64,000 nt of DNA from an uncultured virus (IMG/VR IMGVR_UViG_2822699256_000006) (lineage: Duplodnaviria; Heunggongvirae; Uroviricota; Caudoviricetes). Below the pieces are notes generated by a model. The model was not told the DNA's origin. It searched no databases and saw only the letters and a program-made list of their open reading frames with translations. Within the stretch, counting starts at the first letter, position 1. Every line of letters begins with the position of its first letter. The DNA is taken from the IMG/VR virus record IMGVR_UViG_2822699256_000006; one strand, given 5' to 3'. A program made the translations under genes and the position numbers. Below, in pieces: positions 326 to 50,515 of this stretch.

Positions 326-347
326 CCGACTCCGTCGGATGTGTGTG
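326..347 (+). promoter_or_regulatory. C-TCC-G hairpin + TGT box, copy 1
   Basis: ccgac-tcc-gtcgg, a, tgtgtgtg; intergenic, upstream of the RBS of the next ORF. Confidence 0.75.
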
Positions 348-385
348 AGCAAAATATAATTCTATAACTATTGGAGGAATCATTC

Positions 386-661
386 ATGAAATACAAATTA
401 AATATGCAAGGCTTAGAGGTAAAAGTTCCAGAAACTACAATGAATCCAGAAATCAACATAGACTTCAAGGGGATGACTATTGAAGTAGACGATTTAAGTC
501 TAACTGAATATGCTTCACTAATGAAAGAAATGTTTACTATTGGTAAAGAAGTAACAAAAGAAATATTACTTTTCCAACAAGAAATGCAGGAGCGTAGTGA
601 TGAGCTAAGACGCTCACGTTTACAAGATTGTAATGCAATTCTAAAGAAACAAGCTGAATGA
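386..661 (+). CDS. hypothetical protein
   Basis: GGAGG RBS before ATG at 386. Confidence 0.7.
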   Translation: MKYKLNMQGLEVKVPETTMNPEINIDFKGMTIEVDDLSLTEYASLMKEMFTIGKEVTKEILLFQQEMQERSDELRRSRLQDCNAILKKQAE

Positions 662-842
662 TTTATAAATTAGACACCTATCTGTTCATAGATATTCATT
701 TTATGAACAGTTAAGATTGCCTAATTATATACTTTATGGTTTATATTTTCTATTTCATAGTAATCTATTTCTTATTTTTTATGAAAATACAAAATATAAA
801 CCATTTATTATTATAAAAATAAACCTTGGAGGTATACATATA

Positions 843-1100
843 ATGACTACAAATTTAACTCAAAAAGCTATGAACGTTCAATCTAAAAAGGAATTACAAC
901 AATTACTGTCTCCTCACACTATTGAAATGCAACATTCTATTGTTAAAAGTGCTATTAATAATTTGAATTCTGAAATTGAGTGTGATATTCGTTCTAACGA
1001 TACATCTATTGCATTATATAAAATGTCACAAGTTGTTGTACTGGAAGATTCATTACATATTATAGAGCGTGTTTTATTAAAACAGCGGGTGCTAGTTTAA
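843..1100 (+). CDS. hypothetical protein
   Basis: GGAGGT RBS before ATG at 843; the upstream extension in the ORF track is AT-rich and probably non-coding. Confidence 0.7.
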   Translation: MTTNLTQKAMNVQSKKELQQLLSPHTIEMQHSIVKSAINNLNSEIECDIRSNDTSIALYKMSQVVVLEDSLHIIERVLLKQRVLV

Positions 1101-1251
1101 TGAACTCGTCAGCTGTTGTGATATGTGTTTTCTTAGTTGTCACTGGTCAATTATATGCAATCCCGCTACTTCTATTATTCACCGCTGTAGTGGGATTTAT
1201 TCGTAAATATTGTTAATTCTAAATCAACTCATATTCCTGGAGGTAATTATT

Positions 1252-2322
1252 ATGTCTAATATTTTAAAAATGGTTCAAGATACAATCGCTAATTCTATTC
1301 GTGTTGAAGTTAAAAGTCCAATTAATAAAAACGGTAAACAAAGATATCCTGTTATTGTTACAGATATGTCACCGTCATTTACATCAGGTTGGTTTGTTCA
1401 ATATAATCCAGTAGCAATGGATAATGGTACTCGTTTATATGATGGTTCTGAAAGTTTCTCAGAATTAAACATCGCTCGTTTTAGTGAATTGCAGAACTTT
1501 TTATTAACTGCAGCTTATTATTTTTCTCAAGGCTCTAATGTTGAAACTTTAACAAACGGAAGACAGCGTGCGATTTATGACCCAGATCCTCGTTTCCGTT
1601 TGACAGTAACATCTTCTAATAATTCAATTTCTGTTGTTTTAACGATTACTGATAATGCATCTCCATTCCATATGTTAAGTATTGCATTTCGTATTGTGCA
1701 ATCTAATACAGGAGATGGTTCATACCACATTATTGGTGCAGATAAGTGTTGGGATAGAAATACAGATACATTCCGTGAAGTAAAAAATGCGAATTTCGCA
1801 CCAAGTAAATCTCGTTTTTATCGTGTGTTTCAGAATCAAAATCAACCAGCAACTATTAAAGCGAAACTTGCTGTAAATAATAATCAATACATGATTAACT
1901 CTGATGGTACATTTGCCATTGATACACAAGCCGCTGCACCCGAATATATTCAAGTTATTTCAAGTGAATATAAAGCTCTAGCATATATTTATGAGCAAGC
2001 ATTAATGAAGAAATCTTTTGAGATTGCATTACAACAAGGATTACCTTCTTCAAAAGCTATGAATGCAAATATACCTAATAATGAGTTGGGACCTAATGGA
2101 ACATTCACTCCGTCCTTCACATTAGGAGGTATAGGAGCTCCTAATCCTGTTCAGAATCAAACAAATGTTAATCCTAATAATACGCAGTTACCACCTGTGC
2201 CACCTATGAATATGGCAGGTGGGCAACAGCAGCAACAACAGATGTCACAACAAGATAACTCATTTAATATTCCTAAAGTTAATGGAGTAGATATTCAAAA
2301 TGATGATCTTCCTTGGACATAA
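1252..2322 (+). CDS. hypothetical protein with Q/N/P-rich linker and SSB-like acidic C-terminal tail
   Basis: GGAGGT RBS; ends ...IQNDDLPWT. Confidence 0.75.
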   Translation: MSNILKMVQDTIANSIRVEVKSPINKNGKQRYPVIVTDMSPSFTSGWFVQYNPVAMDNGTRLYDGSESFSELNIARFSELQNFLLTAAYYFSQGSNVETLTNGRQRAIYDPDPRFRLTVTSSNNSISVVLTITDNASPFHMLSIAFRIVQSNTGDGSYHIIGADKCWDRNTDTFREVKNANFAPSKSRFYRVFQNQNQPATIKAKLAVNNNQYMINSDGTFAIDTQAAAPEYIQVISSEYKALAYIYEQALMKKSFEIALQQGLPSSKAMNANIPNNELGPNGTFTPSFTLGGIGAPNPVQNQTNVNPNNTQLPPVPPMNMAGGQQQQQQMSQQDNSFNIPKVNGVDIQNDDLPWT

Positions 2323-2524
2323 TATATGATAAATAGATGGTCATTCTTATAAACAGGATGGCGGTCTATTTATTTTTAATCTTTCCCCTACGACTACTCT
2401 CTTCATTAGACGCTAAAATTGTATGCATTTTGAAGCATGCCGAAGCATTATGTATATTTTACAATTATTTTCATGTATAATTATTTCTATATGATTTGTA
2501 ATCTTCTTAGGAAGGAGTGACAAC

Positions 2525-4396
2525 ATGATTCAAGTTCGTGAACAGTACGGAAACATCTATGTAAGAATCTTAGATTCACAAGAAACCTTTGATTATACAC
2601 TAGAAAAAATACGATTTATTGAAGGTCGTACTTTTAACTATGAAACTGGTGAATGGATGTTTGGTAAAGAATCTATTGGTGATCTTTTGCTACATTTCGG
2701 CAATCAAATCATCTGGAATCAACCATTAAAAGAAATTATTAAGAATTGTGATGTAAATCATGAACTTATAAATAAACATCTTTCTTGGGAAGATGATGAC
2801 GACTTTAAAACATGGACAATCAAACCATACCCTTATCAAAAAGTTGGCTCTCATTATTTAGCTGATAGAGGAAGAGCGGCTATCTTTGATGGCGTAGGAC
2901 TTGGTAAGACACCTCAAATTATCGGAGCATGTCAGATACTATTTAATAGAAATAAAGCACGTCGTGTATTAATCGTGACGCTAAACTCTTTAAAGAGACA
3001 GTGGGCTAAAGAGATATATAAATTTGCTGGTGAAGAAGCCATAGCTGTATACGGCAGCCCTGCAAAAAGAAAGAAATTTATTAAAGGATTTGCATCACGC
3101 TCTGATATTAGATATTTGGTTGTTAATTATGAAACATTAAGAAGTGCGCAGTATATGAAACTTATTAAAGAAATTCCATTTGATATTGTTGCTTTAGATG
3201 AAGCTCAAAAGATCAAGTCTGGTGTTACAGATAAGTATTTAAATATCGAACCTTCATTAAATGCTAAAGCTTGTTATGACTTAAAGCATATTCCTTATCG
3301 CTTTATAGCGACTGCTACACCAGTACAATCAAAAGCTGAGGAAGTATGGAGTTTATTTAATTTTGTTGATGATAGTATCTTAGGGACATGGGAAGTATTC
3401 CGTGAAAGATACTGTAAATATTCAAATCGATTTGGTATTACAGGTAGCTTTAATCTTGGTGAACTATATTACCGAATTGCTCCTCATTTTATTAGGAGAA
3501 CCAAAGAAATGCCTGAGATTCAACAACAGTTGCCTAAAGTACAGCATTCACATGTATTCTTAGAAATGACTGATGCACAAGAGAGAATTCAAGACCATCT
3601 CTTAATGAAGATGGAAGAGATTAAAGATACAGTTCGTTCTCTTGGATCCGGTACAAAAGTGATTAACGGAAATCTAATGAATGCACAACAAGCGAAAGAA
3701 TACTATGACGGCATTATTCAAGGACTACAGACATTCTTAATTGAAACCTGTGATGCTCCGCAGTTATTAGTGCACCCAGAGGCTTCACAAATGTCTCATA
3801 ATGTAATTTCCGAATTAGGTCTTTCCCCTAAGGATATAGCAAAATCACCTAAATTAGAGCAATTAAAGGACTTTATTAAGCAGCTTTTAAATGATGAACC
3901 TAGCTCTAAGGTAGTTATATTTACAGAGTATGAACGCATGGCCCGCATTATATATGAAGCCCTACCACAATCCGTACTATACACTGGGCAAATATCTGAT
4001 AAAGAAAAGGATTCTGTAATCGAACGATTCCGTGAAGATCCACATACGAAATTCTTCATAAGCACTCGTGCTGGTAGTACTGGGTTAAACCTGCAGGTTG
4101 CTAATTATATGGTTCATTTTGACCTACCATATACGGCAACTGAATTAGAGCAGCGTAATGGCCGTATTGACCGAACTGGTAATGCATTTAGCAATATCAC
4201 TATGTATTACTACATTATGAGTGAATCTTATGATGAACATATGCTACAACTGTTATTCAAGAAATCTGAATTAGCAAAAGAAATCCTAACGGGTGGCGTA
4301 GATAAAACATCTAAAGGCAAAGATGTGAACTCACTTGCTATGGATCGTTTGTTGAAAAAGAGAGCAAAATCACAAGGTAAAATGGCTACTGGCTAA
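2525..4396 (+). CDS. SNF2-family (DEAD/H-like) helicase/ATPase
   Basis: DGVGLGKT Walker A, LDEAQ Walker B, TATP motif III, STRAGSTGLNLQ and QRNGRIDR C-terminal motifs. Confidence 0.9.
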   Translation: MIQVREQYGNIYVRILDSQETFDYTLEKIRFIEGRTFNYETGEWMFGKESIGDLLLHFGNQIIWNQPLKEIIKNCDVNHELINKHLSWEDDDDFKTWTIKPYPYQKVGSHYLADRGRAAIFDGVGLGKTPQIIGACQILFNRNKARRVLIVTLNSLKRQWAKEIYKFAGEEAIAVYGSPAKRKKFIKGFASRSDIRYLVVNYETLRSAQYMKLIKEIPFDIVALDEAQKIKSGVTDKYLNIEPSLNAKACYDLKHIPYRFIATATPVQSKAEEVWSLFNFVDDSILGTWEVFRERYCKYSNRFGITGSFNLGELYYRIAPHFIRRTKEMPEIQQQLPKVQHSHVFLEMTDAQERIQDHLLMKMEEIKDTVRSLGSGTKVINGNLMNAQQAKEYYDGIIQGLQTFLIETCDAPQLLVHPEASQMSHNVISELGLSPKDIAKSPKLEQLKDFIKQLLNDEPSSKVVIFTEYERMARIIYEALPQSVLYTGQISDKEKDSVIERFREDPHTKFFISTRAGSTGLNLQVANYMVHFDLPYTATELEQRNGRIDRTGNAFSNITMYYYIMSESYDEHMLQLLFKKSELAKEILTGGVDKTSKGKDVNSLAMDRLLKKRAKSQGKMATG

Positions 4397-4435
4397 GCTT
4401 TTAGCCATTTTATACATAAAAAGGAGATGTATATT

Positions 4436-4675
4436 ATGAGTGAAATTTTTGAAAGAGCTTTAAAGGAATTACCGGAAGGTATTAGTTTTGATCCATCAAC
4501 AGTGAAAAAAGTTGCTGGTCTTATTATTAAGATGGATAAAGAAATTGAATTTATCAATGAAGGAACACATCCATTTATCGAAAACCATACTGAAGAAGAA
4601 GTTGCAGCTTTTAAAAAAGCATGTGAAAAATACATTCAAATGTATGGAAAGGCATTTACAATAGATCACGATTAA
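4436..4675 (+). CDS. hypothetical protein
   Basis: AAGGAG RBS; ORF track. Confidence 0.65.
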   Translation: MSEIFERALKELPEGISFDPSTVKKVAGLIIKMDKEIEFINEGTHPFIENHTEEEVAAFKKACEKYIQMYGKAFTIDHD

Positions 4676-4711
4676 GGACAGGTCATTTAAACTTATAAAG
4701 GAGAGGTTTTT

Positions 4712-4999
4712 ATGCAGTATGTACTCATTCAATCTGGATTTTTCGTAGAGAGTATGGATTTAAATCAAAAGGGTGAAATTTCTAACGTTACATTCACCAC
4801 TATTTCTGAAAAAGCTAAAATCATTGAAGAAGATGAACTAAAAGCTTACGAAAAAGCTTTAAAGCATCATTTTAGTGATGGTGATTATCGTATTTTACCT
4901 ATTGGCACACCAGCTCATCTATCTTCACTTGAGGAAGATGATGCATTACAGGTTCATCTTGATTTTGGGAAAAGCCCTAAAGATGTTCTGAAAAAATAA
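4712..4999 (+). CDS. hypothetical protein
   Basis: GGAGAGG RBS; ORF track. Confidence 0.7.
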   Translation: MQYVLIQSGFFVESMDLNQKGEISNVTFTTISEKAKIIEEDELKAYEKALKHHFSDGDYRILPIGTPAHLSSLEEDDALQVHLDFGKSPKDVLKK

Positions 5000-5005
5000 G
5001 TACAT

Positions 5006-5026
5006 CCCCTCCGGGGGGTGTATTTG
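5006..5026 (+). promoter_or_regulatory. C-TCC-G hairpin + TGT box, copy 2
   Basis: cccc-tcc-gggg, gg, tgtatttg. Confidence 0.75.
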
Positions 5027-5080
5027 ATTTATGTTCATTTATATTCAGTATTTTACTATTAAAAATTAGGAGTGAACTGT

Positions 5081-5314
5081 ATGTCAAAAGATAATTTATT
5101 AAGATGCGATACGTGTGGAATGGACACACATCAAATTGATACACCTATTTTTGAAAAACCATTACGATTTGCTTTTCGTTCAGATATTAAAACGTTACAA
5201 CAAAATAATAGTAGTAAGAGAACACAAGAAAATATTTGTCTTGATTGTTTCTCTAAAGAATTAAAACAGCTTAGTAAAAATTGCAAGACACAATGTACTG
5301 TTACATTCATTTAA
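5081..5314 (+). CDS. small putative zinc-binding protein
   Basis: CDTC...CLDC pairs; AGGAGTG RBS. Confidence 0.65.
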   Translation: MSKDNLLRCDTCGMDTHQIDTPIFEKPLRFAFRSDIKTLQQNNSSKRTQENICLDCFSKELKQLSKNCKTQCTVTFI

Positions 5315-5332
5315 ATATAGGGGTGACTATTT

Positions 5333-5896
5333 ATGACTCAAACAATGCAAGTTAGTTTTACTTATGATCCAATCGTATTATCAAAACTAACATTACAAAT
5401 TTATGCCGAAAAACACATTGATATAGACAACGCAATTAAATCTACTGTTTACGCTGTATATGAATACTTGCGTACGGTAACTGACGAAGAGTTAGAAAGG
5501 GTTCTAATTCAATACACTCAAGAGGAAGAAATTGAAGCAATTACTTTTAGCAACTTTGAAGAAGAGTGCAAATTGATTTTTACATATATTTTTAAAAGCC
5601 AGCAATTTATAGACCTTGAGTTTGGTTATAAGAGAGAATGTTATTCAAAAACCGGTCTTGGCGTAGTTGATAAGCATGAAAAGACATTTTATGATTGTGC
5701 ATTTGGTGAACACTGGCGGACTGTAGAGAGTATTTTAGAAACTAAATATCCAAAACAGTTTGAAGCTTACTTGCAACTTAATTATGAAAATAAAGAAGAA
5801 CATAATGGTTTTACTCATAAGCAATTAGATCGATTTATTCTAAATACATTTGAATTAGTTGGTGAAATGCGCTCTATTGAAAACCATTTAGATTAA
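5333..5896 (+). CDS. hypothetical protein
   Basis: GGGGTG RBS; 187 aa ORF. Confidence 0.7.
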   Translation: MTQTMQVSFTYDPIVLSKLTLQIYAEKHIDIDNAIKSTVYAVYEYLRTVTDEELERVLIQYTQEEEIEAITFSNFEEECKLIFTYIFKSQQFIDLEFGYKRECYSKTGLGVVDKHEKTFYDCAFGEHWRTVESILETKYPKQFEAYLQLNYENKEEHNGFTHKQLDRFILNTFELVGEMRSIENHLD

Positions 5897-5977
5897 GATA
5901 TTCATCATTTCCTTGCTAGCTAATTTTTACATAATAAAAAGAAGTATTTATTACTATTACATGAAGGGATGGTTTAC

Positions 5978-6265
5978 ATGACAAAAAGCTTAAAAGAAGA
6001 ACATTTGCAAGCAATGAAAGACATTACATCAGGTGCAACTATTTTTAGCTATTCCTTAGCAATGCGGTTACGAGAAGTTGAAAGGTTTGATTTAGAATTG
6101 ATTGATATTATTCATGATTTAGATGAATTAGAAGCTATTTCTGGTGAAGTGTTTCCAGGTGAAAAGAAGCTCCCTTACTTTGGTGCAATACTTACTAAGA
6201 AGGGAAAAGAATATCTAAATAATCATACGAGAGGTGTTGTTAGTAATGAAAATCACCATGCATAA
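5978..6265 (+). CDS. hypothetical protein
   Basis: ORF track; RBS. Confidence 0.65.
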   Translation: MTKSLKEEHLQAMKDITSGATIFSYSLAMRLREVERFDLELIDIIHDLDELEAISGEVFPGEKKLPYFGAILTKKGKEYLNNHTRGVVSNENHHA

Positions 6266-6467
6266 TCCTGTAGCTCCATTTGTAGCTATTGGGCAAAAAC
6301 TTGATTTTAAAATTGGAAAAGAAGTTGCAGGGAAATGTGAAATTGTTTCAGTAGATACAGAAACTAATGCTATCGGCATTGAATTAGATCGTGCAGCAGC
6401 TCACGCTTTCCATGCTACATCTGATTTTCACGGAAGAATTTGCTCTGTTTCTGTGGATTGCAAGTAA
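6246..6467 (+). CDS. hypothetical protein
   Basis: GAGGTG RBS within the previous ORF. Confidence 0.6.
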   Translation: MKITMHNPVAPFVAIGQKLDFKIGKEVAGKCEIVSVDTETNAIGIELDRAAAHAFHATSDFHGRICSVSVDCK

Positions 6468-6518
6468 ACAGGAGAAATCAGGAGATTTCAGCCAATATCA
6501 GCAGGAAAATAACACGAT

Positions 6519-6568
6519 TGTAATGCAATACATCATTACATATTAAAATATTATTGAAATACATTACA
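6519..6568. promoter_or_regulatory. two copies of the palindromic operator (consensus TGTAATGCATTACA)
   Basis: tgtaatgcaataca 6519-6532 and tgaaatacattaca 6555-6568, just upstream of TTGACG-17-TATCGT (6575-6603). Confidence 0.65.
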
Positions 6569-6668
6569 AATCCATTGACGTATTATGTTTTTTGGTATAT
6601 CGTGGAGAACGTACAGTATAAAACCTAGGGAAAGAAATGATATTCCCTTTATTATAATAAATAGTTAA

Positions 6669-6690
6669 TCCACTCCGTGGAATGTTTTTG
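6669..6690 (+). promoter_or_regulatory. C-TCC-G hairpin + TGT box, copy 3
   Basis: tccac-tcc-gtgga, a, tgtttttg. Confidence 0.8.
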
Positions 6691-6715
6691 AAAATTAGAT
6701 ATTGGAGGTCTTTAT

Positions 6716-7057
6716 ATGAATTTTGGCTCAATCGCTCCAGATGAAGTAAAAGTAGGAGAACAATATCAATTTGAATCTAAATATTATTGGTGTGTTCACG
6801 CTACTGTGATTGAAAACCAATGTGGTGAAAATAAAGAGAAATCACGTGGTGAGAAATGGAACGGCTGGAAAATCCGTGTTGATGAAACATTCGGCGGACT
6901 ATCTCCAATACCTATAGGTGAAGAGTTTGAGCTTGGATGGGATGATAGATACCCTCATTATTCAAGCGTAAAAATTAAACCTGTAGGCAGCATGCCTGAT
7001 TATACAGGTTTCGAAGAACCTAAAAGCTATAATTCCACTACAAAGAAGGAGGCTTAA
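6716..7057 (+). CDS. hypothetical protein
   Basis: GGAGGT RBS. Confidence 0.7.
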   Translation: MNFGSIAPDEVKVGEQYQFESKYYWCVHATVIENQCGENKEKSRGEKWNGWKIRVDETFGGLSPIPIGEEFELGWDDRYPHYSSVKIKPVGSMPDYTGFEEPKSYNSTTKKEA

Positions 7058-7059
7058 CC

Positions 7060-7404: not shown

Positions 7405-7435
7405 ATATGGGCTTTATAAGAAAAGAGGGATAATA

Positions 7436-7630: not shown

Positions 7631-7650
7631 AAAAGGGCGCTCTTTGGTAG

Positions 7651-7848: not shown

Positions 7849-7881
7849 TATAATTATTGAATTGAAGCGGGGGATTTGTAA

Positions 7882-13987: not shown

Positions 13988-14009
13988 TCCCCTCCGGGGA
14001 CTGTTTATG
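13988..14009 (+). promoter_or_regulatory. C-TCC-G hairpin + TGT box, copy 4
   Basis: tcccc-tcc-gggga, c, tgtttatg. Confidence 0.8.
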
Positions 14010-14044
14010 AATATAAAATACATATATTAAAGGAGATTTACATA

Positions 14045-14941
14045 ATGACAACTACTACAGCTAATGCAACTTTTTTCCGTGTTTTAATTAACCCTCAAGG
14101 AAATGAAGGTATATTCATTATTGAGTCAGAAATTCTTGGTTACAAAGATAATACTGTATATGCAAGGCTTTTATTTGATGTTTTAGAAAGTGAAGCAAAA
14201 CAATATAAATTTAAACCAGAACATTCCAATATGCATGAGACACCTCAAGAAGCATTTAAATTTATCCTACACAATCACTTTGATAAATTGGTTAACAGTA
14301 CAGTATGGTTATTTGCAAAATACTTTGGTGGCGGCGTAGGTGTAGACTTCAAAGAAATGATAGCTATGCTTAAAAATACACCAGAACTAAAACATTTTGA
14401 TTTAGAAAAAAGGCTTCGTGAAATGCAATCTAAATCTACTGCATCACAAGAAAGCAAACAACAAAAGCCACAGCAAAAAACACAACAAAAGCCACAGCAA
14501 CATAAGACATATACTGCTGCTGAATTGTTAGATGATAGTGTTTTACCATTTGGAAATATGGCACTTTGTGTTTCTGGGCCACTAAAAGGCTCTTATGTAA
14601 CAAAAAGAAGAGAAGGCCATCTTGTACATTGTAATAAAGATTTAAGCAATACATATCCTTTACAATTTGGAGTTAATGCATTTAATTCAGAATTCACTTT
14701 AGTAGTAGACAGAAAAGAGTGGAAGCAAGTTTCAGTAGAAGATGCTATTACAGCTTTAAATGCAGGTTTACAAGTTAAAATTAACTATATGAATACAGAG
14801 CGATGCATCCAGAAAAGTGATACACAAGAAAAAGTTAAATTCTCTACAAAAGGTTCTCAAGAAATGCTGGTTAGCACAAAAGAAGTTATGATCTCATTAG
14901 ATGAGATTATAGCAGCTAATTTTTATGTTTTAAGTGAATAG
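14045..14941 (+). CDS. hypothetical protein with QQK repeats
   Basis: AAGGAG RBS; 298 aa. Confidence 0.75.
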   Translation: MTTTTANATFFRVLINPQGNEGIFIIESEILGYKDNTVYARLLFDVLESEAKQYKFKPEHSNMHETPQEAFKFILHNHFDKLVNSTVWLFAKYFGGGVGVDFKEMIAMLKNTPELKHFDLEKRLREMQSKSTASQESKQQKPQQKTQQKPQQHKTYTAAELLDDSVLPFGNMALCVSGPLKGSYVTKRREGHLVHCNKDLSNTYPLQFGVNAFNSEFTLVVDRKEWKQVSVEDAITALNAGLQVKINYMNTERCIQKSDTQEKVKFSTKGSQEMLVSTKEVMISLDEIIAANFYVLSE

Positions 14942-14969
14942 GCAGGAGATTTTTACTCTTGCCTTTTTT
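14940..14969 (+). terminator. intrinsic terminator
   Basis: aggcaggag...ctcttgcct followed by a T-run. Confidence 0.65.
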
Positions 14970-14979
14970 ATTTGTACGA

Positions 14980-15002
14980 TTCCACTCCGTGGAAAGTAGG
15001 TG
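14980..15002 (+). promoter_or_regulatory. C-TCC-G hairpin, copy 5 (degenerate box)
   Basis: ttccac-tcc-gtggaa, agtaggtg. Confidence 0.7.
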
Positions 15003-15023
15003 ATATATAAGGAGGAACATTTT

Positions 15024-18161: not shown

Positions 18162-18183
18162 TCCACTCCGTGGAATGTTTTTG
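18162..18183 (+). promoter_or_regulatory. C-TCC-G hairpin + TGT box, copy 6
   Basis: tccac-tcc-gtgga, a, tgtttttg (identical to copy 3). Confidence 0.8.
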
Positions 18184-18219
18184 AATAAAATATAATTTAT
18201 TATACTGGAGGAATTTAAA

Positions 18220-24222: not shown

Positions 24223-24858
24223 ATGGCAACACATTCTAAAGCTCCAAGAAACCTTAATCGACATTGGACCAAACAACAAGAAGAAGAATTATTAGATATG
24301 TATGGTGTATATTCATTTTCACATTTATCTCGTCGTTTCGGGAAAACACCATATGCTATCAAGTGTAAATATGCTAGTTTAACTGGAAACTGGGGTGCCC
24401 TTGAAGCTGGTGGATACGTTCTTACAGTAGATGTAGCTGATGCTTTAGGAATTTGCGATAAAACGGTTCGGAGATGGATTGAGGTATATGATTTGCCAGC
24501 TACTCAGCTTTATAAAAAAAGAAACGATTCTAAAAGAAGGCAATACTACATTTCGGTTGAAGAGTTTTGGAAATGGGCTTATGAACATAAAAATCTTATC
24601 GTTTTTTCTAGAGTTAAAAGAGATGTGTTATTACCAGAACCCGCTTGGCTCGATGTTGAAATAAAAAACAACAAAGAAATTCCACCTAAAACAAGACAAA
24701 CTTGGTCTAAAGAAGAAGCAGATCAAGCATACACGTGGTTTATGTCTGGTGTTCATTATAAAGAGATTGCTGAAAAATTAGGTCGCACATCTCATGGAGT
24801 ACATCGCAAATTAATGAGAATGATTCATCAAAAAAGAAACGGAGTGTTAGGATTATGA
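24223..24858 (+). CDS. multi-HTH DNA-binding protein
   Basis: WTKQQEEEL and WSKEE..YKEIAEKLGRT repeats, plus DVADALGICDKTVRRW. Confidence 0.7.
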   Translation: MATHSKAPRNLNRHWTKQQEEELLDMYGVYSFSHLSRRFGKTPYAIKCKYASLTGNWGALEAGGYVLTVDVADALGICDKTVRRWIEVYDLPATQLYKKRNDSKRRQYYISVEEFWKWAYEHKNLIVFSRVKRDVLLPEPAWLDVEIKNNKEIPPKTRQTWSKEEADQAYTWFMSGVHYKEIAEKLGRTSHGVHRKLMRMIHQKRNGVLGL

Positions 24859-28403: not shown

Positions 28404-28426
28404 TGCCCCTCCGGGGCATGTTTTAG
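28404..28426 (+). promoter_or_regulatory. C-TCC-G hairpin + TGT box, copy 7
   Basis: tgcccc-tcc-ggggca, tgttttag. Confidence 0.8.
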
Positions 28427-28462
28427 AATAAATAACGAACCACCCACTTAGGAGGAAATAAC

Positions 28463-33673: not shown

Positions 33674-35380
33674 TTGACAACAAAAGATGAAAAAGAAATC
33701 AAAGCAGGTGTAGAGCATGAAGCTGCCAATCCCAAAACTAGGACTCGCAAGCAAAATAGCACTAAAGCAACTAAGCAAAAACCCGCAACTAGCGAAAAAA
33801 CTGACAAACTGGAAAGCTCCGAAGAAAAAGTAGTATTAATGGTGCCAGTTATTAGTGATGAACCGGATATTTCTAAATACGTTACCAATGTAAAAGGAGA
33901 TGTATATGCCATCTCTGGCTTACCAGAAGAGTTTATCGCTACTTTATTTGCATGGGTATCCCGTTCACCTAAATCCTTTAAAGAGCATCTTAAAACCGCA
34001 TTAAAAGAACTTAACTATGAATCATCTGCTGGTCACTTTGGGGCTCTTACGGAAAAAGCAAAAGCCTTTCATGAGAAATGGACTGTTGGATATGGTCATA
34101 GTTCTGTAGCAGAACATGCTGTAGCTCACGTTGGCATAGAAAAGGTATCTCGATTAGCTTCTGCTGAATTAGAATTATCTAATCCATTTTTAAGTATTAC
34201 AGAGTATTCGCAGCGTTACCAGAAACCTAAACGAAATGAATGGTATAATCCATTCCCTGAATATGTGAGTCATAACGGTCCAACTAGGGATATGAAGCCT
34301 AGTACATGGCATCGTGAGTTTGAGAAGTTTATGCATGATTCATTTGATGCATTTGAACAACTTGTTGATGGGATATACACTGCTTTAAAGAAAGAATTTG
34401 TTAATACAAAAGAATATAAAGAGTTACAAGCAAAAGGAGATACAAAAGCGATTGATCGTGAATTATCCAAGTTAGAAAAATTAGCTTTTGAAGATGGACG
34501 ATATGCATTACCTTTAGCTATGTACACTCAATTAGGAATGACTGCAAATGGTCGTGCTTGGCGTGATTCGATTGCACAAATCGGAATATCTGACCATAAA
34601 GAAGTTCATGACCTTGGAGACAACTTAAAAACAGAAATCACTAAAGTGCTGCCTGTTTTATTGAAGTATGCAACACCTTCTCAATACCAGCAAAATTATA
34701 AAAAGAGAATGCAATCTCATTTTCATGATTCGGATTATAATACTTCAGGTCGCTCTAGCGTTAAATTACATACTGTAGATCATGAAGATACAGCAATAAA
34801 TGAAATTATTACACATCTACTTATTGAGAACGAAAGTTTAACATATGTAGCAGCAAACAACATAGTTAAAGTAATGGATAAAGAAAAGAAATTAGAAATG
34901 ATTCAGGATATGTTGTTTGAAATGCAACACTTTGACACTCCACCAGAATCATTCAAACAAATTCAATATAAAGCTTCTTTCTTAATTTCAGAAGCGAACT
35001 GGCATCAATTACTTCGACATAACAGAAAAACAGATTTTACATTTGCTAAGCCAACAACTAAATTTGGTATTAAGATCCCTCCAAGAGTTAAGAAATTTGG
35101 TCTTGAATATATCTTGGAAGACATTGCTAAGAAATCAGAGGAACTGTATAATAAGATGGTAAATGCATTACATAAATCAGAAGCTGAATATGTTGTACTG
35201 AATGCGCATAAGCGTCCAATTGCAGCTAGTTTCAATTTATGGGAAGCATATCACTTAATTAATCTTCGCACATCTGATGAAGCCCAATGGGATATCAGAG
35301 AAACATTTGAAGAATTATATGAATTCTTATGTGCAGTACACCCAACTTTGATTAGTAAAGCAAAACGTCGATTATCATAA
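33674..35380 (+). CDS. thyX: flavin-dependent thymidylate synthase, tandem two-domain form
   Basis: GHSSVAEHA, EYSQRY, RYALP, TANGRAW; second domain QLLRHNR...NL....HLINLRTS..AQWDIR. Confidence 0.85.
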   Translation: MTTKDEKEIKAGVEHEAANPKTRTRKQNSTKATKQKPATSEKTDKLESSEEKVVLMVPVISDEPDISKYVTNVKGDVYAISGLPEEFIATLFAWVSRSPKSFKEHLKTALKELNYESSAGHFGALTEKAKAFHEKWTVGYGHSSVAEHAVAHVGIEKVSRLASAELELSNPFLSITEYSQRYQKPKRNEWYNPFPEYVSHNGPTRDMKPSTWHREFEKFMHDSFDAFEQLVDGIYTALKKEFVNTKEYKELQAKGDTKAIDRELSKLEKLAFEDGRYALPLAMYTQLGMTANGRAWRDSIAQIGISDHKEVHDLGDNLKTEITKVLPVLLKYATPSQYQQNYKKRMQSHFHDSDYNTSGRSSVKLHTVDHEDTAINEIITHLLIENESLTYVAANNIVKVMDKEKKLEMIQDMLFEMQHFDTPPESFKQIQYKASFLISEANWHQLLRHNRKTDFTFAKPTTKFGIKIPPRVKKFGLEYILEDIAKKSEELYNKMVNALHKSEAEYVVLNAHKRPIAASFNLWEAYHLINLRTSDEAQWDIRETFEELYEFLCAVHPTLISKAKRRLS

Positions 35381-39728: not shown

Positions 39729-39751
39729 CTCCCTCCGGGAGCTGTATATAG
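39729..39751 (+). promoter_or_regulatory. C-TCC-G hairpin + TGT box, copy 8
   Basis: ctccc-tcc-gggag, c, tgtatatag. Confidence 0.75.
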
Positions 39752-39784
39752 AAATATATTGTAAAACTAAGGAGGATATGCAAA

Positions 39785-42764: not shown

Positions 42765-42787
42765 TGCTATAATTGTAGTGCATTACA
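42765..42787 (+). promoter_or_regulatory. extended -10 promoter with abutting operator
   Basis: TGcTATAAT then tgtagtgcattaca at 42774-42787. Confidence 0.7.
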
Positions 42788-42794
42788 CAGGAGG

Positions 42795-43226: not shown

Positions 43227-43244
43227 TAGAAGGAGAGAGAAGAG

Positions 43245-44633: not shown

Positions 44634-44647
44634 GGAGGTAACATGTA

Positions 44648-47600
44648 ATGTCAGACTTTAAAAGTAATGAAATCTATACATTAGAAATGTATCATAGAAA
44701 CACAAACTCAAATGTTGCTTATTGTGATTTATTAGTTTTGGATAGTCATAATACAATTCATTTAGCTAATATTATTGGCCAAGATTCAAAGGTAAAACAA
44801 GTTGCTTGGTTAATGCAAGAGGGGAAGGTTGGTCAAATCCGCCGTGCCGAGGGTCCTCATTATGAACAAGGACATCAAAAACATTCTGTATATTCTATTG
44901 CTGATAGAAAAGCTTGCTATGATGAGTATTCTGGTAAATCTGATGATTTAACACATACATTATTAATCTCAAAGAATGCAAAACTTGATTTGAAAGTTCG
45001 TAAAGAATGGTTCAAAGACGAAGAGAAGCGCATTGCAGATGGCAATGAGCCAAGAAAAATGCCAGCAGAATTAGCTGAGTTAATCTTAGCTTGGGATGGA
45101 GATTATAAAGCACAAATCTTTGAAGTTCTTAATGATAGATACAATACGCCAATGCTTGAAGAATGGGCTGATTATATTATTAATGCTTTAGAAGAAAACG
45201 GTGGATATGAAGCATTATCTGTAAAATGTTATGGATCAGATTATGATTTAAAAGCTGGCTTATTACGTGTTACCGAACAAGAATTAGAATCTATCATTAC
45301 AGATGGTATTCAAAGTTATGAATTAGAGTTTGCAGTTGAAGAAGATGATACAGTAGAACCTATATTAGATAAATGCCAAACTACTGATGATTACTTAACA
45401 CACTTTGCTGCTGAATTAGGTCAGCGTATCCAGGAGAATGTAAAGGTATGCTTTGATCCAGCTGAACAGAAGCATCATCCTGCTTTTTATGATGTAAACT
45501 TGCAAGCAAATGAACAAGGGATAACAGGTTTATATCCACCTCAAGCCAATACTATTATGGGGATTGTTAATACTCTTTCAACAGAAGCCTTTTGCTTTTT
45601 AATTGGGGAAATGGGTACAGGTAAAACAGTGCAAGGGGCGATTATTCCTTATATTACTGAAGCTTCTATTCAAAATGTAGAACATAATCCTAAGCCGCAG
45701 CGTGTCATTGTTCTATCTCCAAGTATCATGGTTGAGAAATGGGCAAGGGAAATTAGAGAACGTATTCCTAATTGTAAAACTCATATGATTAATCATTGGA
45801 CTGATGTGAAAAAGATAGAAGATGCGAATGTATTTATTGATAGTAAAGGAAAGCGCAAATTTAAAAAGCCTGAACAGTGGGAGTATTACATTATTAGTTC
45901 TGAGCTTTCTAAATTTACATTTCCACTGGAGCCAATTAAAGATTGGAGAACAAAGAAAGATGACATGACACTCTACCATGTGGATGAAGTAGATCCTGAG
46001 CAAACAAAATTCATTTCTCGTACAGTCTTTCATGAAGATGGTACAACTGAGAGAGTAAAAGAACGTGTTGTGAAACCTGAATATAAAGTTAGATTTGAAA
46101 AAACATACATTCAAAACCCAGAGTCTGGCGATACAAGACAAGTTTTAACATGCGGGGATACAGGTTTTTATTGCCCAAAATGTGGTGGTATTTTAAAAGG
46201 ACGTGGCGATAAAGTAGCAGGCGAAAACTTCTTTGGTCGATTTAACAAAAGCTCTGAAAGATTCGTTAAAAACATGACAAAAGAGAATCTTGTTTGTCGT
46301 AATGATGTAGATACAAGCACATTGCCAAAATCAGAAGTGAAAGAGTGGGTTTTAGATACATTAACACAACGATATGTACCAGCAGAACCAACACAGGAAT
46401 GTGGGTATGTGTTATGGCAACCAGAAAAGTTACCAGTAGATTCTGGATATAGAAAAGTATCACCTATTTGGTACATTAACAAAAGATTACCTCGTGGCTT
46501 CTTTAAATATTTAGTTGCCGATGAAGTTCATGAATATAAATCTGGTGATAGCGCAATTGGACAAGCATTCGGTCAATTGATTAATCATACAGAGAAACAA
46601 ATTTTACTTACTGGTACATTAATGGGTGGTATGTCTCGTGATGTCTTCTATTTATTAGCAAGACTTAATCCAAAACAATTGCTGAAAGAAAGTATTACTT
46701 ATTATGACGAAACAGTCTTTAATAAACGATATGGTATTTCTGAATTTAACACGAGAAGTATTGAAGGTAGATTGAAGAAAAATACACTGCAAAAGCCTGG
46801 TATTTCTCCTCATTTATTCCCAATTCATTTAATGGCCAATTGTGCATTTTTAGAACTAAATGATATGGGTTATGCATTACCTCCATATGAGGAAATTCCT
46901 GTGGTTGTAGATATGTCAGAAGAGCATGCGTTAGCTTATAATTCACTTGCTAAAGATATGCTTACTACAATTAGAAGTGAAGACGACTTAAAAGGCATGG
47001 CTAGTGTTTCTACATTTATGAATGCTATGTATCAGTACGCTGATGCTCCATTTAACGTTCCTGAAATTTCAACATACAACTCAGAAGGTAAGCAGTTTGT
47101 ATTAGGCGAACCACGTAATTTTGATACAAATGAATTCATGCCAGCTAAGTTACAACAACTTATCAATACCATTGATGAAGAAGTATATGTGCATGGCAGA
47201 AAGAATCTTGTTTATGTGAAATATACAGGAACAGAAGCTTGGAATCAGATGGATACTTACTTATATGATGAATTTAAAAAGCGTGGGTTTAAAGTAGGTA
47301 TTTTACGTAACGGCAGAAGCTATGATGGTATTAAGATGCCGAAGAACTCTCGCTCTCGTGAAGCTTGGCTACATGACATGATGGAAAAACATGATTGGGA
47401 TGTATTAATTACAAATCCTCGTCTAGTAAAAGTAGGTTTGGATTTGCTCGCATTCCCTAATATTCATTTCTTCCAATTAGATTATAGTACTTATGACTAT
47501 ATGCAAGCATCTAGAAGATCATGGAGATTAAAACAAACGAAAAATGTAAAAGTATTCACGTATGTTTATCGTGGGACAATTCAAGAAAAAGCATTAAATC

Positions 47601-48085
47601 TGATCGCTCGTAAGATTGATGCTGCTCTCGCTATGCAAGGTAAGTTTTCAGAAGAAGGCTTACGTGCAATGGCTGATAGTGGTGATGGTATGAATGCATT
47701 AGCAAAACAATTAATGCAAGATGATGTACTAGAAGAACTTGATACTGTTCATGATATATTCGCTCGTAAGAATCAATCTTTCGAAGAGATGCAGTCTGTT
47801 GAATTCCAAGATTACGATGGATATATAATGAATCCAATTGAGGGCGGAATGGATACAGTTCGCAAGATTGCACAAGGGCTTATTACTCATGTTGAAGAAG
47901 AAGAGAAAGCTGGCCGAGCAACAAACGAAGATGTTCGACGTACAAAAGAAACAGTCTCTGACTATCTTGATATGTTTGATAATGTCCTGAAGCAGGTTGA
48001 TAACATTCGAGAATACAATAAAGGTGTTAGTAAAAATAAACAAGTTATTGAAGGACAACAAGCATTAGACCTCTTTGCTTTATAA
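44648..48085 (+). CDS. large SNF2-like/DExH helicase with zinc-ribbon insertion
   Basis: GEMGTGKT, ADEVHE, LTGTLMGG, VGLDL, QASRRSWR; CPKC insertion. Confidence 0.85.
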   Translation: MSDFKSNEIYTLEMYHRNTNSNVAYCDLLVLDSHNTIHLANIIGQDSKVKQVAWLMQEGKVGQIRRAEGPHYEQGHQKHSVYSIADRKACYDEYSGKSDDLTHTLLISKNAKLDLKVRKEWFKDEEKRIADGNEPRKMPAELAELILAWDGDYKAQIFEVLNDRYNTPMLEEWADYIINALEENGGYEALSVKCYGSDYDLKAGLLRVTEQELESIITDGIQSYELEFAVEEDDTVEPILDKCQTTDDYLTHFAAELGQRIQENVKVCFDPAEQKHHPAFYDVNLQANEQGITGLYPPQANTIMGIVNTLSTEAFCFLIGEMGTGKTVQGAIIPYITEASIQNVEHNPKPQRVIVLSPSIMVEKWAREIRERIPNCKTHMINHWTDVKKIEDANVFIDSKGKRKFKKPEQWEYYIISSELSKFTFPLEPIKDWRTKKDDMTLYHVDEVDPEQTKFISRTVFHEDGTTERVKERVVKPEYKVRFEKTYIQNPESGDTRQVLTCGDTGFYCPKCGGILKGRGDKVAGENFFGRFNKSSERFVKNMTKENLVCRNDVDTSTLPKSEVKEWVLDTLTQRYVPAEPTQECGYVLWQPEKLPVDSGYRKVSPIWYINKRLPRGFFKYLVADEVHEYKSGDSAIGQAFGQLINHTEKQILLTGTLMGGMSRDVFYLLARLNPKQLLKESITYYDETVFNKRYGISEFNTRSIEGRLKKNTLQKPGISPHLFPIHLMANCAFLELNDMGYALPPYEEIPVVVDMSEEHALAYNSLAKDMLTTIRSEDDLKGMASVSTFMNAMYQYADAPFNVPEISTYNSEGKQFVLGEPRNFDTNEFMPAKLQQLINTIDEEVYVHGRKNLVYVKYTGTEAWNQMDTYLYDEFKKRGFKVGILRNGRSYDGIKMPKNSRSREAWLHDMMEKHDWDVLITNPRLVKVGLDLLAFPNIHFFQLDYSTYDYMQASRRSWRLKQTKNVKVFTYVYRGTIQEKALNLIARKIDAALAMQGKFSEEGLRAMADSGDGMNALAKQLMQDDVLEELDTVHDIFARKNQSFEEMQSVEFQDYDGYIMNPIEGGMDTVRKIAQGLITHVEEEEKAGRATNEDVRRTKETVSDYLDMFDNVLKQVDNIREYNKGVSKNKQVIEGQQALDLFAL

Positions 48086-48118
48086 GAGTTCTAATGCATT
48101 TATTGGAGGTAATGAAAC

Positions 48119-48487
48119 ATGAGAGAGACTATTATTTTTCATGATTTTATTTTTGTTGATTGTGGACGTCAAAAGCCATATGAGCAAGGAAATAGATGTA
48201 TTGATTGGAAAGCTGTATTTCAATTTATAGAGGAAAATAAGAATGAAATTGAATCTGTTTCAGCCGGATTAGCTGAAGAATGGTATTCTACTTCAGCTAC
48301 AATTTACACAAAAGAAGATAGCTATGTAGATCCACATGAAATGGAAGCACATCTATCAAGTGATTGGGCTACACCTTCTATACATGTAGTTTATAAAAAT
48401 AAAATGATACAAAGTTTTGAAGTATGGGAGCTTGGGGAAGAGATCGCTAATCCCTACAATCCTCCAATTTATCAACTATTATATTAA
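48119..48487 (+). CDS. hypothetical protein
   Basis: GGAGGT RBS. Confidence 0.7.
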   Translation: MRETIIFHDFIFVDCGRQKPYEQGNRCIDWKAVFQFIEENKNEIESVSAGLAEEWYSTSATIYTKEDSYVDPHEMEAHLSSDWATPSIHVVYKNKMIQSFEVWELGEEIANPYNPPIYQLLY

Positions 48488-48501
48488 AAGGGGCGTTTAT
48501 A

Positions 48502-49074
48502 ATGATGAAAAAAATTACACCAGACACACTAGAAGCTATTATTGAACATACTGAGGCAATGCATAAACAAACTGAAGTATTACTAAATGTATCTTTAGAA
48601 TTAGATCAAGTTTATGCAGAAAACAAACATAAGGATGAATTGATTTCTCAGCTTAGCGACGACATTGAAAAAGCTACAGAACAAATAAAAGACTTAAAAA
48701 CAACATTATCCGAAGAACAAGATGACAATAGTGAAAAAGAAGAAGAAATACAAAAATTGAAATCAAGTACTGAAGATCTTCTTCACGATATAAAAGAACG
48801 TGATGAAACTATTGCTAAGTTAACTGGCAACAAAAATGAGCCTATTAACTTTGACGAATTTGCTAAGAAATTTATTACTATTAAATCAAGTGATGTAATT
48901 GAGTTTTTACCTGAAGAAGATCAAAAGAAATTAGGACAGCTATTAGACATAATTGCAGAAGGGCGAAAGGAAGCAGGAAAACAAGCGCATAATCAATATC
49001 TTACAATTAATGTAGATGAAGCATATTCTAATCAAGTTGCAAACATGATGAAAGCTCATAATCACTATAACTAA
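48502..49074 (+). CDS. coiled-coil hypothetical protein
   Basis: heptad-rich N-terminal half. Confidence 0.7.
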   Translation: MMKKITPDTLEAIIEHTEAMHKQTEVLLNVSLELDQVYAENKHKDELISQLSDDIEKATEQIKDLKTTLSEEQDDNSEKEEEIQKLKSSTEDLLHDIKERDETIAKLTGNKNEPINFDEFAKKFITIKSSDVIEFLPEEDQKKLGQLLDIIAEGRKEAGKQAHNQYLTINVDEAYSNQVANMMKAHNHYN

Positions 49075-49130
49075 GGTTAATTAAAACTATAAAATAATAA
49101 ATAAAAAAAAAGAATAAGGAGACTCATACA

Positions 49131-49814
49131 ATGACAGATTTACATTTTTTAAATTCACCTACACCAAAGCCAATATCAAATAAGCCTGATTGCAATAGGA
49201 TGGTAGCGGAAAAACTAGGGACTACTACTCGTGGTTGTAACTGTCAAAGTATGATATTACTCCTTATTCAGAATGGTGAAATTAAAACGTGGGAGAATAT
49301 TACTGCTACACCTTGCCATTTGATAGAAATGAAGATAGGTAAAACTGAAGATGAATATACTTCTTACATTAAAGATGGTGAGGGCATATATGCTCCTGAA
49401 AGAAAAGGGACATCCTATACTTTTGATATAAATGGTGATTTTAAAGAATTCGGGGAACCAGCTCGCTATATTGAGACAATTAAACTTGGTGATAAATATT
49501 TTACAAAGCAAGTTTGTGATGCATTCGATGAAGTCACTTGGGAATTTTTCGAAGACTATAATTGTCCTGATGAATTAAAAGAATTACCTACTGGCATTTA
49601 TCGTTTACTAATTGAACATGCGTGCTTTAATTCTTGGTCACCTGATTGTGGTTATGAAGGGGATGGAGATGTAGATTATAAACTTTATACTGATATTCCT
49701 CTTCATTATTATTGGAAATATAAAGAAGAGTTAGTTGCTGAAGCTGAGCCTGAAGCAGAAGAATTAGCAGCAAGATATATTTATTTACAAGAGATCAATA
49801 ATCTAAATTATTAG
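49131..49814 (+). CDS. hypothetical protein
   Basis: AAGGAG RBS; 227 aa. Confidence 0.7.
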   Translation: MTDLHFLNSPTPKPISNKPDCNRMVAEKLGTTTRGCNCQSMILLLIQNGEIKTWENITATPCHLIEMKIGKTEDEYTSYIKDGEGIYAPERKGTSYTFDINGDFKEFGEPARYIETIKLGDKYFTKQVCDAFDEVTWEFFEDYNCPDELKELPTGIYRLLIEHACFNSWSPDCGYEGDGDVDYKLYTDIPLHYYWKYKEELVAEAEPEAEELAARYIYLQEINNLNY

Positions 49815-49817
49815 GAG

Positions 49818-50138
49818 ATGGATAAGATGGACCAAAAATATAAATTATTTAACAAGGCAACAAATGCACTAATCATGGAAAACAATGAAGAAACAATACG
49901 TGAAAAAGTAGAAGAAATGCTAGAAGATAAAGTTGGTCTTATTATTATGCTTGAACAAACTACTGAAGAGGATAATGTAAATCCATTACTTATTTACTTA
50001 CATAGTGATAATTACGACCATTTAAGTGACGAAGAACTTGAAGGCTTAGCAAATAATTCTATTGATTTAGAAGGTACAATGTTAGAACAACATGAAGGGA
50101 TTTGTCAGTATCTTGACATTTATGTGGTGGCAGCGTAA
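49818..50138 (+). CDS. hypothetical acidic protein
   Basis: ORF track. Confidence 0.65.
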   Translation: MDKMDQKYKLFNKATNALIMENNEETIREKVEEMLEDKVGLIIMLEQTTEEDNVNPLLIYLHSDNYDHLSDEELEGLANNSIDLEGTMLEQHEGICQYLDIYVVAA

Positions 50139-50440
50139 TGGTTATGAAGCAAATATCTGATTGTATAGATCGTGCGTTAAAAGGATTACCTCCATTAAAG
50201 AGTAAAAAGTGGAAGGCTTATTTACAATGGAACGAAGAACATAGGACTCATTATATCTGTCTCTATCACTATCAACATCTCGTTTTAATTTATGATACTG
50301 TGAAGAAAAGTATTTTACATCAGTGGTGGGAAAAACCAGCTGATAAAAGAGGTCTGGATAGTGCGAAAGAGTATATAGAAGAAAAAGAGAGAATTTGTTT
50401 AAAAGAGAAGAAACCTCTTATTCAAATGGGGGATAAGTAG
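50138..50440 (+). CDS. hypothetical protein
   Basis: coupled ORF. Confidence 0.65.
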   Translation: MVMKQISDCIDRALKGLPPLKSKKWKAYLQWNEEHRTHYICLYHYQHLVLIYDTVKKSILHQWWEKPADKRGLDSAKEYIEEKERICLKEKKPLIQMGDK

Positions 50441-50477
50441 ATTATTCTTGAGTTATTCAAACAAAACCTGTTATTAT

Positions 50478-50491
50478 TGTAATGTATTACA
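50478..50491. promoter_or_regulatory. palindromic operator copy
   Basis: tgtaatgtattaca immediately after TGtTATTAT. Confidence 0.7.
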
Positions 50492-50492
50492 T

Positions 50493-50515
50493 TCCCCCTC
50501 CGGGGGATGTTTTTG
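50493..50515 (+). promoter_or_regulatory. C-TCC-G hairpin + TGT box, copy 9
   Basis: tccccc-tcc-ggggga, tgtttttg. Confidence 0.8.

Follow-up and report, generated by a model that had tools for sequence, protein, structure and literature searches.

Hairpin elements in the replication gene array

The stretch analysed here, 64,000 nt from an uncultured tailed phage (IMG/VR IMGVR_UViG_2822699256_000006; hereafter the window), carries nine small hairpin elements, each followed by a short box and located between the genes of a replication and recombination block. Its closest relative was a 259,656-bp plasmid of Bacillus thuringiensis (NZ_CP097261.1, classed in PLSDB as a mobilizable plasmid), ~91% identical in the 14 kb compared and 88% identical in another stretch. 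A megablast of the 14 kb against a phage collection gave no match, and a search of genome contigs with the RecD-like protein found no relative. The plasmid had 12 hairpin elements, all on the + strand and within 52 kb (108,186–159,399). They lay in a block of one-directional replication and recombination genes, which the window samples. The window start corresponds to about position 111,000 of the plasmid, so that three more copies lie upstream of it.

The plasmid encoded a terminase, a tail sheath, a baseplate J protein and ParM, and its giant virion proteins (1867–2393 amino acids, aa) had full-length PHROG matches. This gene content indicates a jumbo phage-plasmid of ~260 kb, and, judged by sequence similarity, the window is part of such a replicon. 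The first-pass annotation had given activity on incoming single-stranded DNA (ssDNA) as an example of how the elements might act. Such action after conjugative transfer found no support here; the gene content is that of a phage-plasmid.

The motif CTCCG occurred 16 times on the + strand of the window, nine times with a perfect stem of 4–6 bp (the C:G closing pair counted). On the − strand none of the 11 occurrences had such a stem. Across 300 dinucleotide-preserving shuffles of the window, such hairpins numbered 0.14 on average and never more than two. All nine were placed between open reading frames (ORFs), with 39–72 nt from the loop to the start codon, and they often began 0–6 nt past the stop codon of the upstream ORF; the hairpin of element 4 directly abutted it. 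Positions +7 to +9 from the loop read TGT in eight copies and AGT in the copy at 14980. A second conserved part, TGA or WGA, was found at +13 to +15, and the box is therefore better described as TGTnnnTGA than by its TGT alone. Apart from this revision, the first-pass description of the locus held. The nine C-TCC-G hairpins were recovered at the same positions and on a single strand by site reading and by the whole-window scan, with TGT 6 nt past the loop in eight of them. Pfam agreed on the downstream RecD-like helicase, SSB (single-stranded DNA-binding protein), AAA ATPase, primase and DnaN, and recognized no RNA polymerase gene within the window.

The stems covary, as had been proposed from the window alone. 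We aligned 13 ungapped copies: the nine of the window, three further ones from the related plasmid and one from a Bacillus halotolerans plasmid. The 5-bp helix was paired in 98.5% of the cells, and four of the five pairs had changes on both sides (19 cells), the closing C:G pair being without variation. The covariation score was 0.767, versus 0.178 for shuffles, and none of 500 shuffles reached the observed value. When the 3′ partner was slid by 1–3 columns as a control, paired cells dropped to at most 51%. We derived a covariance model from these copies and scanned 800,808 bases with it, comprising the window and its relatives. Within the window and the related plasmid, its only matches above 26 bits were the nine and 12 copies, respectively (26–38 bits), all on the array strand.

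Stems that vary around an invariant loop and closing pair fit recognition by a specific protein. A double-stranded operator for a dimeric repressor was rejected, because the stem sequences differ and pairing is kept. Nearest-neighbour energies ranged from −2.0 to −5.7 kcal/mol for the DNA hairpins, the same for both strands, and from −4.1 to −9.7 kcal/mol for the RNA hairpins. On the plasmid, a terminator and three further small hairpins (ATCACC-CTCC-GGGTGAT, ACACC-TTCG-GGTGT and ACACC-TTGC-GGTGT) were found at 109,690–109,790, directly upstream of the third extra element.

A candidate polymerase gene and its association with the elements

A motif scan of all plasmid ORFs detected QGGADFDGDK in a 1310-aa protein (NZ_CP097261.1 102,435–106,364, + strand). 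Past its gene, which ends in its own terminator, the first hairpin comes after 1.8 kb and the equivalent of the window start after ~4.6 kb. The protein is annotated as hypothetical in RefSeq and was without a Pfam family. The sequence GGADxDGD, which includes the DxDGD metal-binding signature, was invariant in all 14 aligned homologs. The Pfam family RdRP (PF05183) was found above the cut-off in three of the eight homologs scanned; P0001 and the plasmid's own protein had no match to it.

For the fold search we used an AlphaFold model of the homolog P0012 (1053 aa, ~34% identical to the plasmid protein), with a predicted local distance difference test score of 75.6 and a predicted template modelling (TM) score of 0.69. 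Foldseek gave 24 chains at E ≤ 1e-3. The best structural matches of this model were QDE-1 (E 7.8e-17, TM 0.46–0.53), RDR2 (E about 1e-16) and the virion RNA polymerase gp66 of the crAss-like phage phi14:2 (E 1.6e-4); P23-45 gp96 followed with an E of 1.6e-3. Going by the motif and the homolog's model, the plasmid protein is most likely an RNA polymerase with two barrels in one chain, as in QDE-1, RDR and YonO. Single-chain two-barrel polymerases similar to YonO were noted earlier in B. thuringiensis phage 0305phi8-36 by Iyer et al., as cited in the accessible part of PMC7824862.

Sequence searches against Pfam, PHROGs and the PDB with the polymerase and the giant virion-module ORFs returned no RNA polymerase name, and Pfam and PHROGs returned no RNA polymerase family for 12 large ORFs. 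The polymerase was recognized instead by the motif scan, by Pfam on its homologs and by the fold search. With tblastn it had no match in the phage collection. A T7-like motif B (R-x3-K-x7-[YF]-G) was absent from the ORFs of at least 300 aa of the B. thuringiensis plasmid; the scan gave two matches only, in other plasmids and apparently unrelated.

Besides NZ_CP097261.1, tblastn found polymerase homologs in plasmids of B. halotolerans, Bacillus licheniformis, Paenibacillus urinalis and Paenibacillus rhizovicinus. Every polymerase-bearing plasmid had its own version of the hairpin plus box (Table 1). The copies shared the strand of the polymerase gene, and the first of them came downstream of it. 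In the B. licheniformis plasmid, SSB and primase each had an element upstream; in that of B. halotolerans, SSB did. As the window has elements at the same genes, the positions are conserved while the sequences have turned over.

To count strands, we took 13 IMG/VR loci with a full-length polymerase homolog and scored both strands for perfect stems of at least 4 bp, at least three of them G-C, that are closed by C:G around an A?TCC or TNNC loop. Downstream of the polymerase gene, 45 hairpins were on the polymerase strand and two on the other strand. In the 10 kb upstream of the gene, the counts were three and 11, respectively. The test of co-occurrence with a polymerase, proposed in the first reading of the window, was positive for its promoter option, with homologs in five plasmids.

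In a tree of 14 polymerases, the protein of the B. thuringiensis plasmid (loop TCC) grouped with those of B. halotolerans and locus L095 (both ATCC; support 100/99), and L085 grouped with L096 (both TGAC; support 100/100). L087, also with a TCC loop, was on a long branch elsewhere, so that the loop type follows polymerase kinship in part only.

Where the polymerase was absent, the elements were absent, decayed or slipped. Five proviruses share the RecD-like gene, and none of them had a polymerase homolog (none of three among those at least 90% complete). Seven 20-kb loci of these proviruses had no such intergenic element, and none upstream of the RecD-like genes. The one CTCCG in these loci whose stem reached 4 bp (in L023) had no box and no start codon after it. 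The 140-kb plasmid pG9842_140 (NC_011774.1; ~70% identity) had no polymerase homolog by tblastn. Its SSB copy of the element was decayed, and the ortholog of the copy at 13988 had slipped to a perfect TTCTC-TACG-GAGAA plus TGTTTTTGA. These copies lie within 1400–3730 of locus L030. The plasmid is sparsely annotated and looks like a degenerating derivative.

A terminator directly upstream found no support as a general feature of the elements: in the 90 nt ahead of them, only three of 59 had a terminator with a perfect stem, a count that leaves out the imperfect one at 14940. In NZ_CP114067.1 (near 144930) and NZ_CP035189.1 (near 178637, complementary strand), AACCCCC-ATCC-GGGGGTT was followed ~30 nt on by a strong terminator, and the interval contained no ORF. 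Were the element a promoter, the product of such a site would be a tiny non-coding RNA. The P. rhizovicinus plasmid (NZ_CP048288.1) also had a recurring palindrome, GTAATGCATTAC, often beside TATAAT-like hexamers. The sequence GTAATGCA occurred there 21 times on the + strand and 17 times on the − strand. The palindrome is probably a repressor operator, unrelated to the hairpins.

Table 1 Hairpin elements of the window, with the adjoining terminator-like hairpin, and their counterparts in other polymerase-bearing replicons. Positions refer to the window.
Feature	Position	Strand	Hairpin and box	Downstream feature	Score (bits)	Copies
Element 1	326..348	+	CCGAC-TCC-GTCGG (326–338), box TGTGTGTGA (340–348)	91-aa ORF, start 386	32.0	
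Element 2	5006..5027	+	CCCC-TCC-GGGG (5006–5016), box TGTATTTGA (5019–5027)	start codon 5081	32.8	
Element 3	6669..6691	+	TCCAC-TCC-GTGGA, box TGTTTTTGA	113-aa ORF, start 6716	38.2	
Element 4	13988..14010	+	TCCCC-TCC-GGGGA, box TGTTTATGA	298-aa ORF, start 14045	37.5	
Intrinsic-terminator-like hairpin	14940..14972	+	9 pairs, 5 G-C, T-run	ends ~8 nt before element 5		
Element 5	14980..15003	+	TTCCAC-TCC-GTGGAA, variant box AGTAGGTGA	RecD-like helicase, start 15024	31.0	
Element 6	18162..18184	+	TCCAC-TCC-GTGGA, box TGTTTTTGA	SSB, start 18220	38.2	
Element 7	28404..28427	+	TGCCCC-TCC-GGGGCA, box TGTTTTAGA	AAA ATPase, start 28463	34.6	
Element 8	39729..39752	+	CTCCC-TCC-GGGAG, box TGTATATAGA	primase, start 39785	29.9	
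Element 9	50493..50516	+	TCCCCC-TCC-GGGGGA, box TGTTTTTGT	DnaN, start 50537	36.0	
B. halotolerans and B. licheniformis plasmids			GCCCC-ATCC-GGGGC, then N-TTAGGTGA or similar			
P. urinalis plasmid			stems GGAGCC / GCTATC / GCAGTC, loop TAAC, then RRGGKCTTTWTGA			
P. rhizovicinus plasmid			loop TGTC or TATC, then CATTCnnnnTGATG			
IMG/VR L085, L096			TGAC loops			5 and 6
IMG/VR L087			TCC loops with ATTTGGTGAA			6
IMG/VR L084, L094			TATC loops			2 each

Proposed hairpin promoters and possible signals in RNA

A close known parallel is the set of early promoters P1–P3 used by the virion RNA polymerase (gp50) of coliphage N4. According to the accessible part of PMC4496689, these have a short inverted repeat of 5–7 bp with a 3-nt loop. 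The template loop (−12A, −11G, −10G) is closed by −9C:−13G in a GC-rich heptamer with its centre at −11, and the non-template strand reads CTCCG. A sheared G:A pair makes this DNA loop very stable, and it extrudes at physiological supercoiling (PMC4496689). All nine window copies had stems of 4–6 bp and a 3-nt loop, and the non-template CTCCG was present in nine of nine window copies and 12 of 12 related-plasmid copies, so that the core, with its template 5′-GGA-3′ closed by C:G, is identical. As described for N4, the identity of the stem bases appears to matter for pairing only, and the elements are co-oriented ahead of early genes. A start site at a fixed downstream distance, which we propose here, and extrusion of the hairpin from supercoiled DNA with the help of SSB would be further likenesses. 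In all lineages except those of B. halotolerans and B. licheniformis, the coding-strand loop was T...C, that is G...A on the template, the same geometry as in N4.

The parallel with the N4 loop, drawn in the first reading of the window, is thus accurate, as an analogy only. The template base −8G, contacted in N4 by the specificity loop of the polymerase according to the same source, is not kept: the second non-template base past the loop was T in four copies and G in five, giving A or C on the template, never G. The N4 enzyme is a T7-like single-subunit polymerase, whereas the candidate here has an unrelated two-barrel fold. With both the −8G contact and a T7-like enzyme missing, the elements are not members of the N4 promoter family. 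They also differ from it in number and spread (9–12 over 50 kb, versus three promoters at one genome end), in their Gram-positive host, and in the 4-nt loops of their other lineages.

We consider it fairly probable that the nine elements are template-strand hairpin promoters for the element-encoded two-barrel polymerase, similar to those of N4 in their working and served by an unrelated enzyme. The polymerase gene, with its own terminator, would be expressed by the host RNA polymerase. At each element, the 5–6 bp inverted repeat would extrude from negatively supercoiled or replicating DNA, and the template loop 5′-C-GGA-G-3′ (C-GNNA-G in other lineages) would be compact, of the sheared G:A kind seen in N4. 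We infer that the polymerase reads this hairpin in DNA and not in RNA, and that it does so through the loop together with its closing pair and the junction of the stem. RNA would start at a fixed distance downstream, in or beside the TGTnnnTGA box, perhaps at a purine of TGA, 14–15 nt past the loop. The resulting mRNAs would have leaders of ~25–55 nt with the ribosome-binding site of the RecD-like helicase, SSB, AAA ATPase, primase and DnaN.

Promoters for the host sigma-A were rejected, as there was no consistent −35/−10 pair and consensus matches in the array were fewer than in shuffles. In the two shortest elements, transcription from a −10 hexamer past the box would begin within the ribosome-binding site. 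Element 5 follows the terminator-like hairpin by ~8 nt and precedes the RecD-like start codon by 39 nt; a sigma-A promoter would not fit into this space.

What has been reported for the fold is in part consistent with hairpin promoters. The available portion of a preprint (10.1101/2020.03.07.982082) states that crAss gp66 and QDE-1 transcribe ssDNA far better than duplex DNA, and such a preference would suit a promoter with an exposed single strand. For QDE-1, RDR2 and gp66, the accessible text of these sources reports no hairpin promoter. There gp66 is described as packaged in the virion, which may be a further difference. Among the matches listed, the openly accessible literature described no hairpin promoter for a two-barrel polymerase.

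YonO of the Bacillus prophage SPbeta, likewise a two-barrel RNA polymerase in one chain, transcribes a long block of genes that all point in one direction. The accessible part of PMC5467207 gives one known start site, upstream of yonK (coordinate 2225998 in B. subtilis strain 168), and states that the YonO promoter sequence was not determined. In the yonN–yonK gap (NC_001884.1 60564–60538, complementary strand) we found TGGAGA-TTCC-TCTCCA followed by GTGTGAA. This hairpin had been picked independently beforehand, and the forward mapping primer for YonO coincides with it exactly (PMC5467207). The reverse primer being ~230 nt downstream, the YonO start is within that interval. Among SPbeta relatives, SPBc2 kept a hairpin at the same place; that of phi3T was weaker, that of Goe11 was rebuilt around a GGGG/CCCC stem, and for SPbetaL4 the picture was unclear. 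We treat this suggestive coincidence as a lead, not as support. YonO differs in length (839 aa versus about 1300 aa) and in serving late structural genes from one start site, as far as that source describes, whereas here many sites are involved and the genes that follow are those of replication. In addition, the SPbeta hairpin is closed by A:T and not C:G.

Several observations weigh against template-strand promoters for this polymerase. The DNA hairpin energies are small and, with equal values for the two strands, give no preference to the template. The ATCC loop of the B. halotolerans and B. licheniformis plasmids becomes GGAT on the template, not GNNA. The hairpin class is post hoc, the counting rule having been written after these loci were seen; the strand and position asymmetry of the counted hairpins is not. 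The polymerase gene is outside the window; that the replicon of the window also has it is deduced from the plasmid (~91% identity) and from a B. thuringiensis contig that encodes a protein of 96% identity. Its DxDGD motif was aligned by hhalign with FDNDGDK of YonO, a likeness of the two catalytic centres, and the match was weak (probability 15.5%, E 0.0017). Among related enzymes, the early transcripts of gp66 had no common upstream motif as far as the accessible part of the preprint reports (10.1101/2020.03.07.982082), and the two-barrel polymerase of P23-45 uses linear motifs. Two further points on this side concern RNA. The accessible text of PMC13753749 describes in the B. subtilis rrn leaders a small hairpin followed at once by the boxA-like AUGAUCUUUGAAA, which binds NusB. 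The window element, a hairpin plus AUGUUUUUGAA, resembles this boxA and is one base shorter. In the pG9842_140 ortholog, the coding-strand loop is C-UACG-G, a very stable RNA tetraloop, which would hint at a role in RNA.

Taken together, readings at the RNA level are rather unlikely. The first-pass annotation had offered an antitermination signal and a binding site for an RNA-binding regulator beside promoters for an element-encoded polymerase. The co-occurrence with a gene of the QDE-1/YonO kind makes the promoters the best reading; the other two are weakened and keep part of their weight. In the antitermination reading, which we think unlikely, the element would be a recognition module similar to nut sites or rrn leaders. 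A boxB-type hairpin and a boxA-like tract would load an element-encoded factor, with or without NusB/S10, for terminator read-through in the 59-kb array, or would bind an RNA-binding regulator. Like the elements, rrn leaders have a small hairpin and then a U-rich box ending GAA(A), on the sense strand of a long transcription unit (accessible part of PMC13753749). Terminator-like sites do occur on the + strand inside the array (31, 4390, 14940, 19033, 24055, 26060 and 35621), and the annotation of the B. halotolerans and B. paralicheniformis plasmids places a small KOW-motif protein close to the AAA ATPase gene. The lambda nut sites have the same layout of hairpin and box as the rrn leaders, and boxB-type sites also show lineage-specific loops on covarying stems. 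Known nut and rrn sites, however, occur once per operon, just past the promoter, unlike the twelve sites in 52 kb seen here, each directly before a ribosome-binding site. The boxes of four other lineages, with TTAGGTGA, ATTTGGTGAA and CATTCnnnnTGATG among them, are unlike boxA, and element 5 is just past a terminator, not ahead of one. We know of no rationale in RNA for the T...C loop ends. The elements also track the polymerase gene and not a known antiterminator or any identified N-like gene.

A processing or stabilizing element would raise selected replication genes, either by a cut of the polycistronic transcript near the box or by a hairpin at the 5′ end that blocks 5′-to-3′ decay. Hairpins at the 5′ end do stabilize Bacillus mRNAs, the placement before ribosome-binding sites is fixed and often 0–6 nt past the preceding stop codon, and the pyrimidine-rich left arm and loop (CCCTCC) resemble an anti-Shine-Dalgarno sequence. 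We nevertheless regard this as quite unlikely, because a generic stabilizer needs neither an invariant loop and closing pair nor a box at fixed distance that changes by lineage with the polymerase. The energies of the RNA hairpins are modest for this role, and no candidate nuclease for processing was identified. The same energies, with stems of only 4–6 bp, speak against a weak terminator or pause signal for the host or element polymerase. This we consider very unlikely, even though six of the nine elements were terminator-like in a loose consensus scan and the tract past the stem is T-rich in several lineages. The T-runs are short, interrupted and begin 2–3 nt past the stem, and terminators need neither the conserved loop nor the TGA of the box. 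Moreover, the elements directly precede replication genes, and element 5 follows a real terminator, so that a second one would leave the next gene promoterless.

Other genes of the array and implications

Three further genes of the window are of note. A 211-aa protein (24223–24855) had helix-turn-helix matches and a weak match to Sigma70 region 4, below the cut-off (E 2.7e-4). It is a candidate regulator of the next gene class. A ThyX-like protein of 568 aa (33674–35380) had two Thy1 stretches. ThyX is usually much shorter, and this protein may be duplicated or fused. The one-directional array is closed by a Rap-family TPR protein with a RapH_N domain (60178–61323). A relative has a small ORF annotated directly after this gene, which suggests a signalling pair of the Rap-Phr type. 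In the virion block of the B. thuringiensis plasmid, a 2309-aa protein (50023–56952, complementary strand) had a 3′-5′ exonuclease (RNase H-like) domain near residue 250, and its remainder had no match.

More tentatively, DNA mini-hairpins of the template strand (C-GNA-G or C-GNNA-G loops on short covarying stems, with a start box) may serve phages and phage-plasmids as a shared promoter grammar for their single-chain two-barrel polymerases similar to YonO and QDE-1, YonO of SPbeta included. If true, the identity of the loop would set polymerase specificity lineage by lineage. It would also represent a second, independent invention of the N4-type hairpin promoter, and would account for the ssDNA preference of the fold, up to the eukaryotic RNA interference polymerases. 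The promoter reading itself is open to direct tests, as B. thuringiensis, B. licheniformis, B. halotolerans and Paenibacillus strains with the elements are in culture. A promoter of ~25 nt and a one-protein polymerase would explain the timing of replication genes in large phage-plasmids and, with loops differing between lineages, might provide orthogonal polymerase–promoter pairs for Gram-positive hosts. They would also offer a mutable in vitro target for a class of enzymes regarded as similar to the ancestor of all cellular RNA polymerases.

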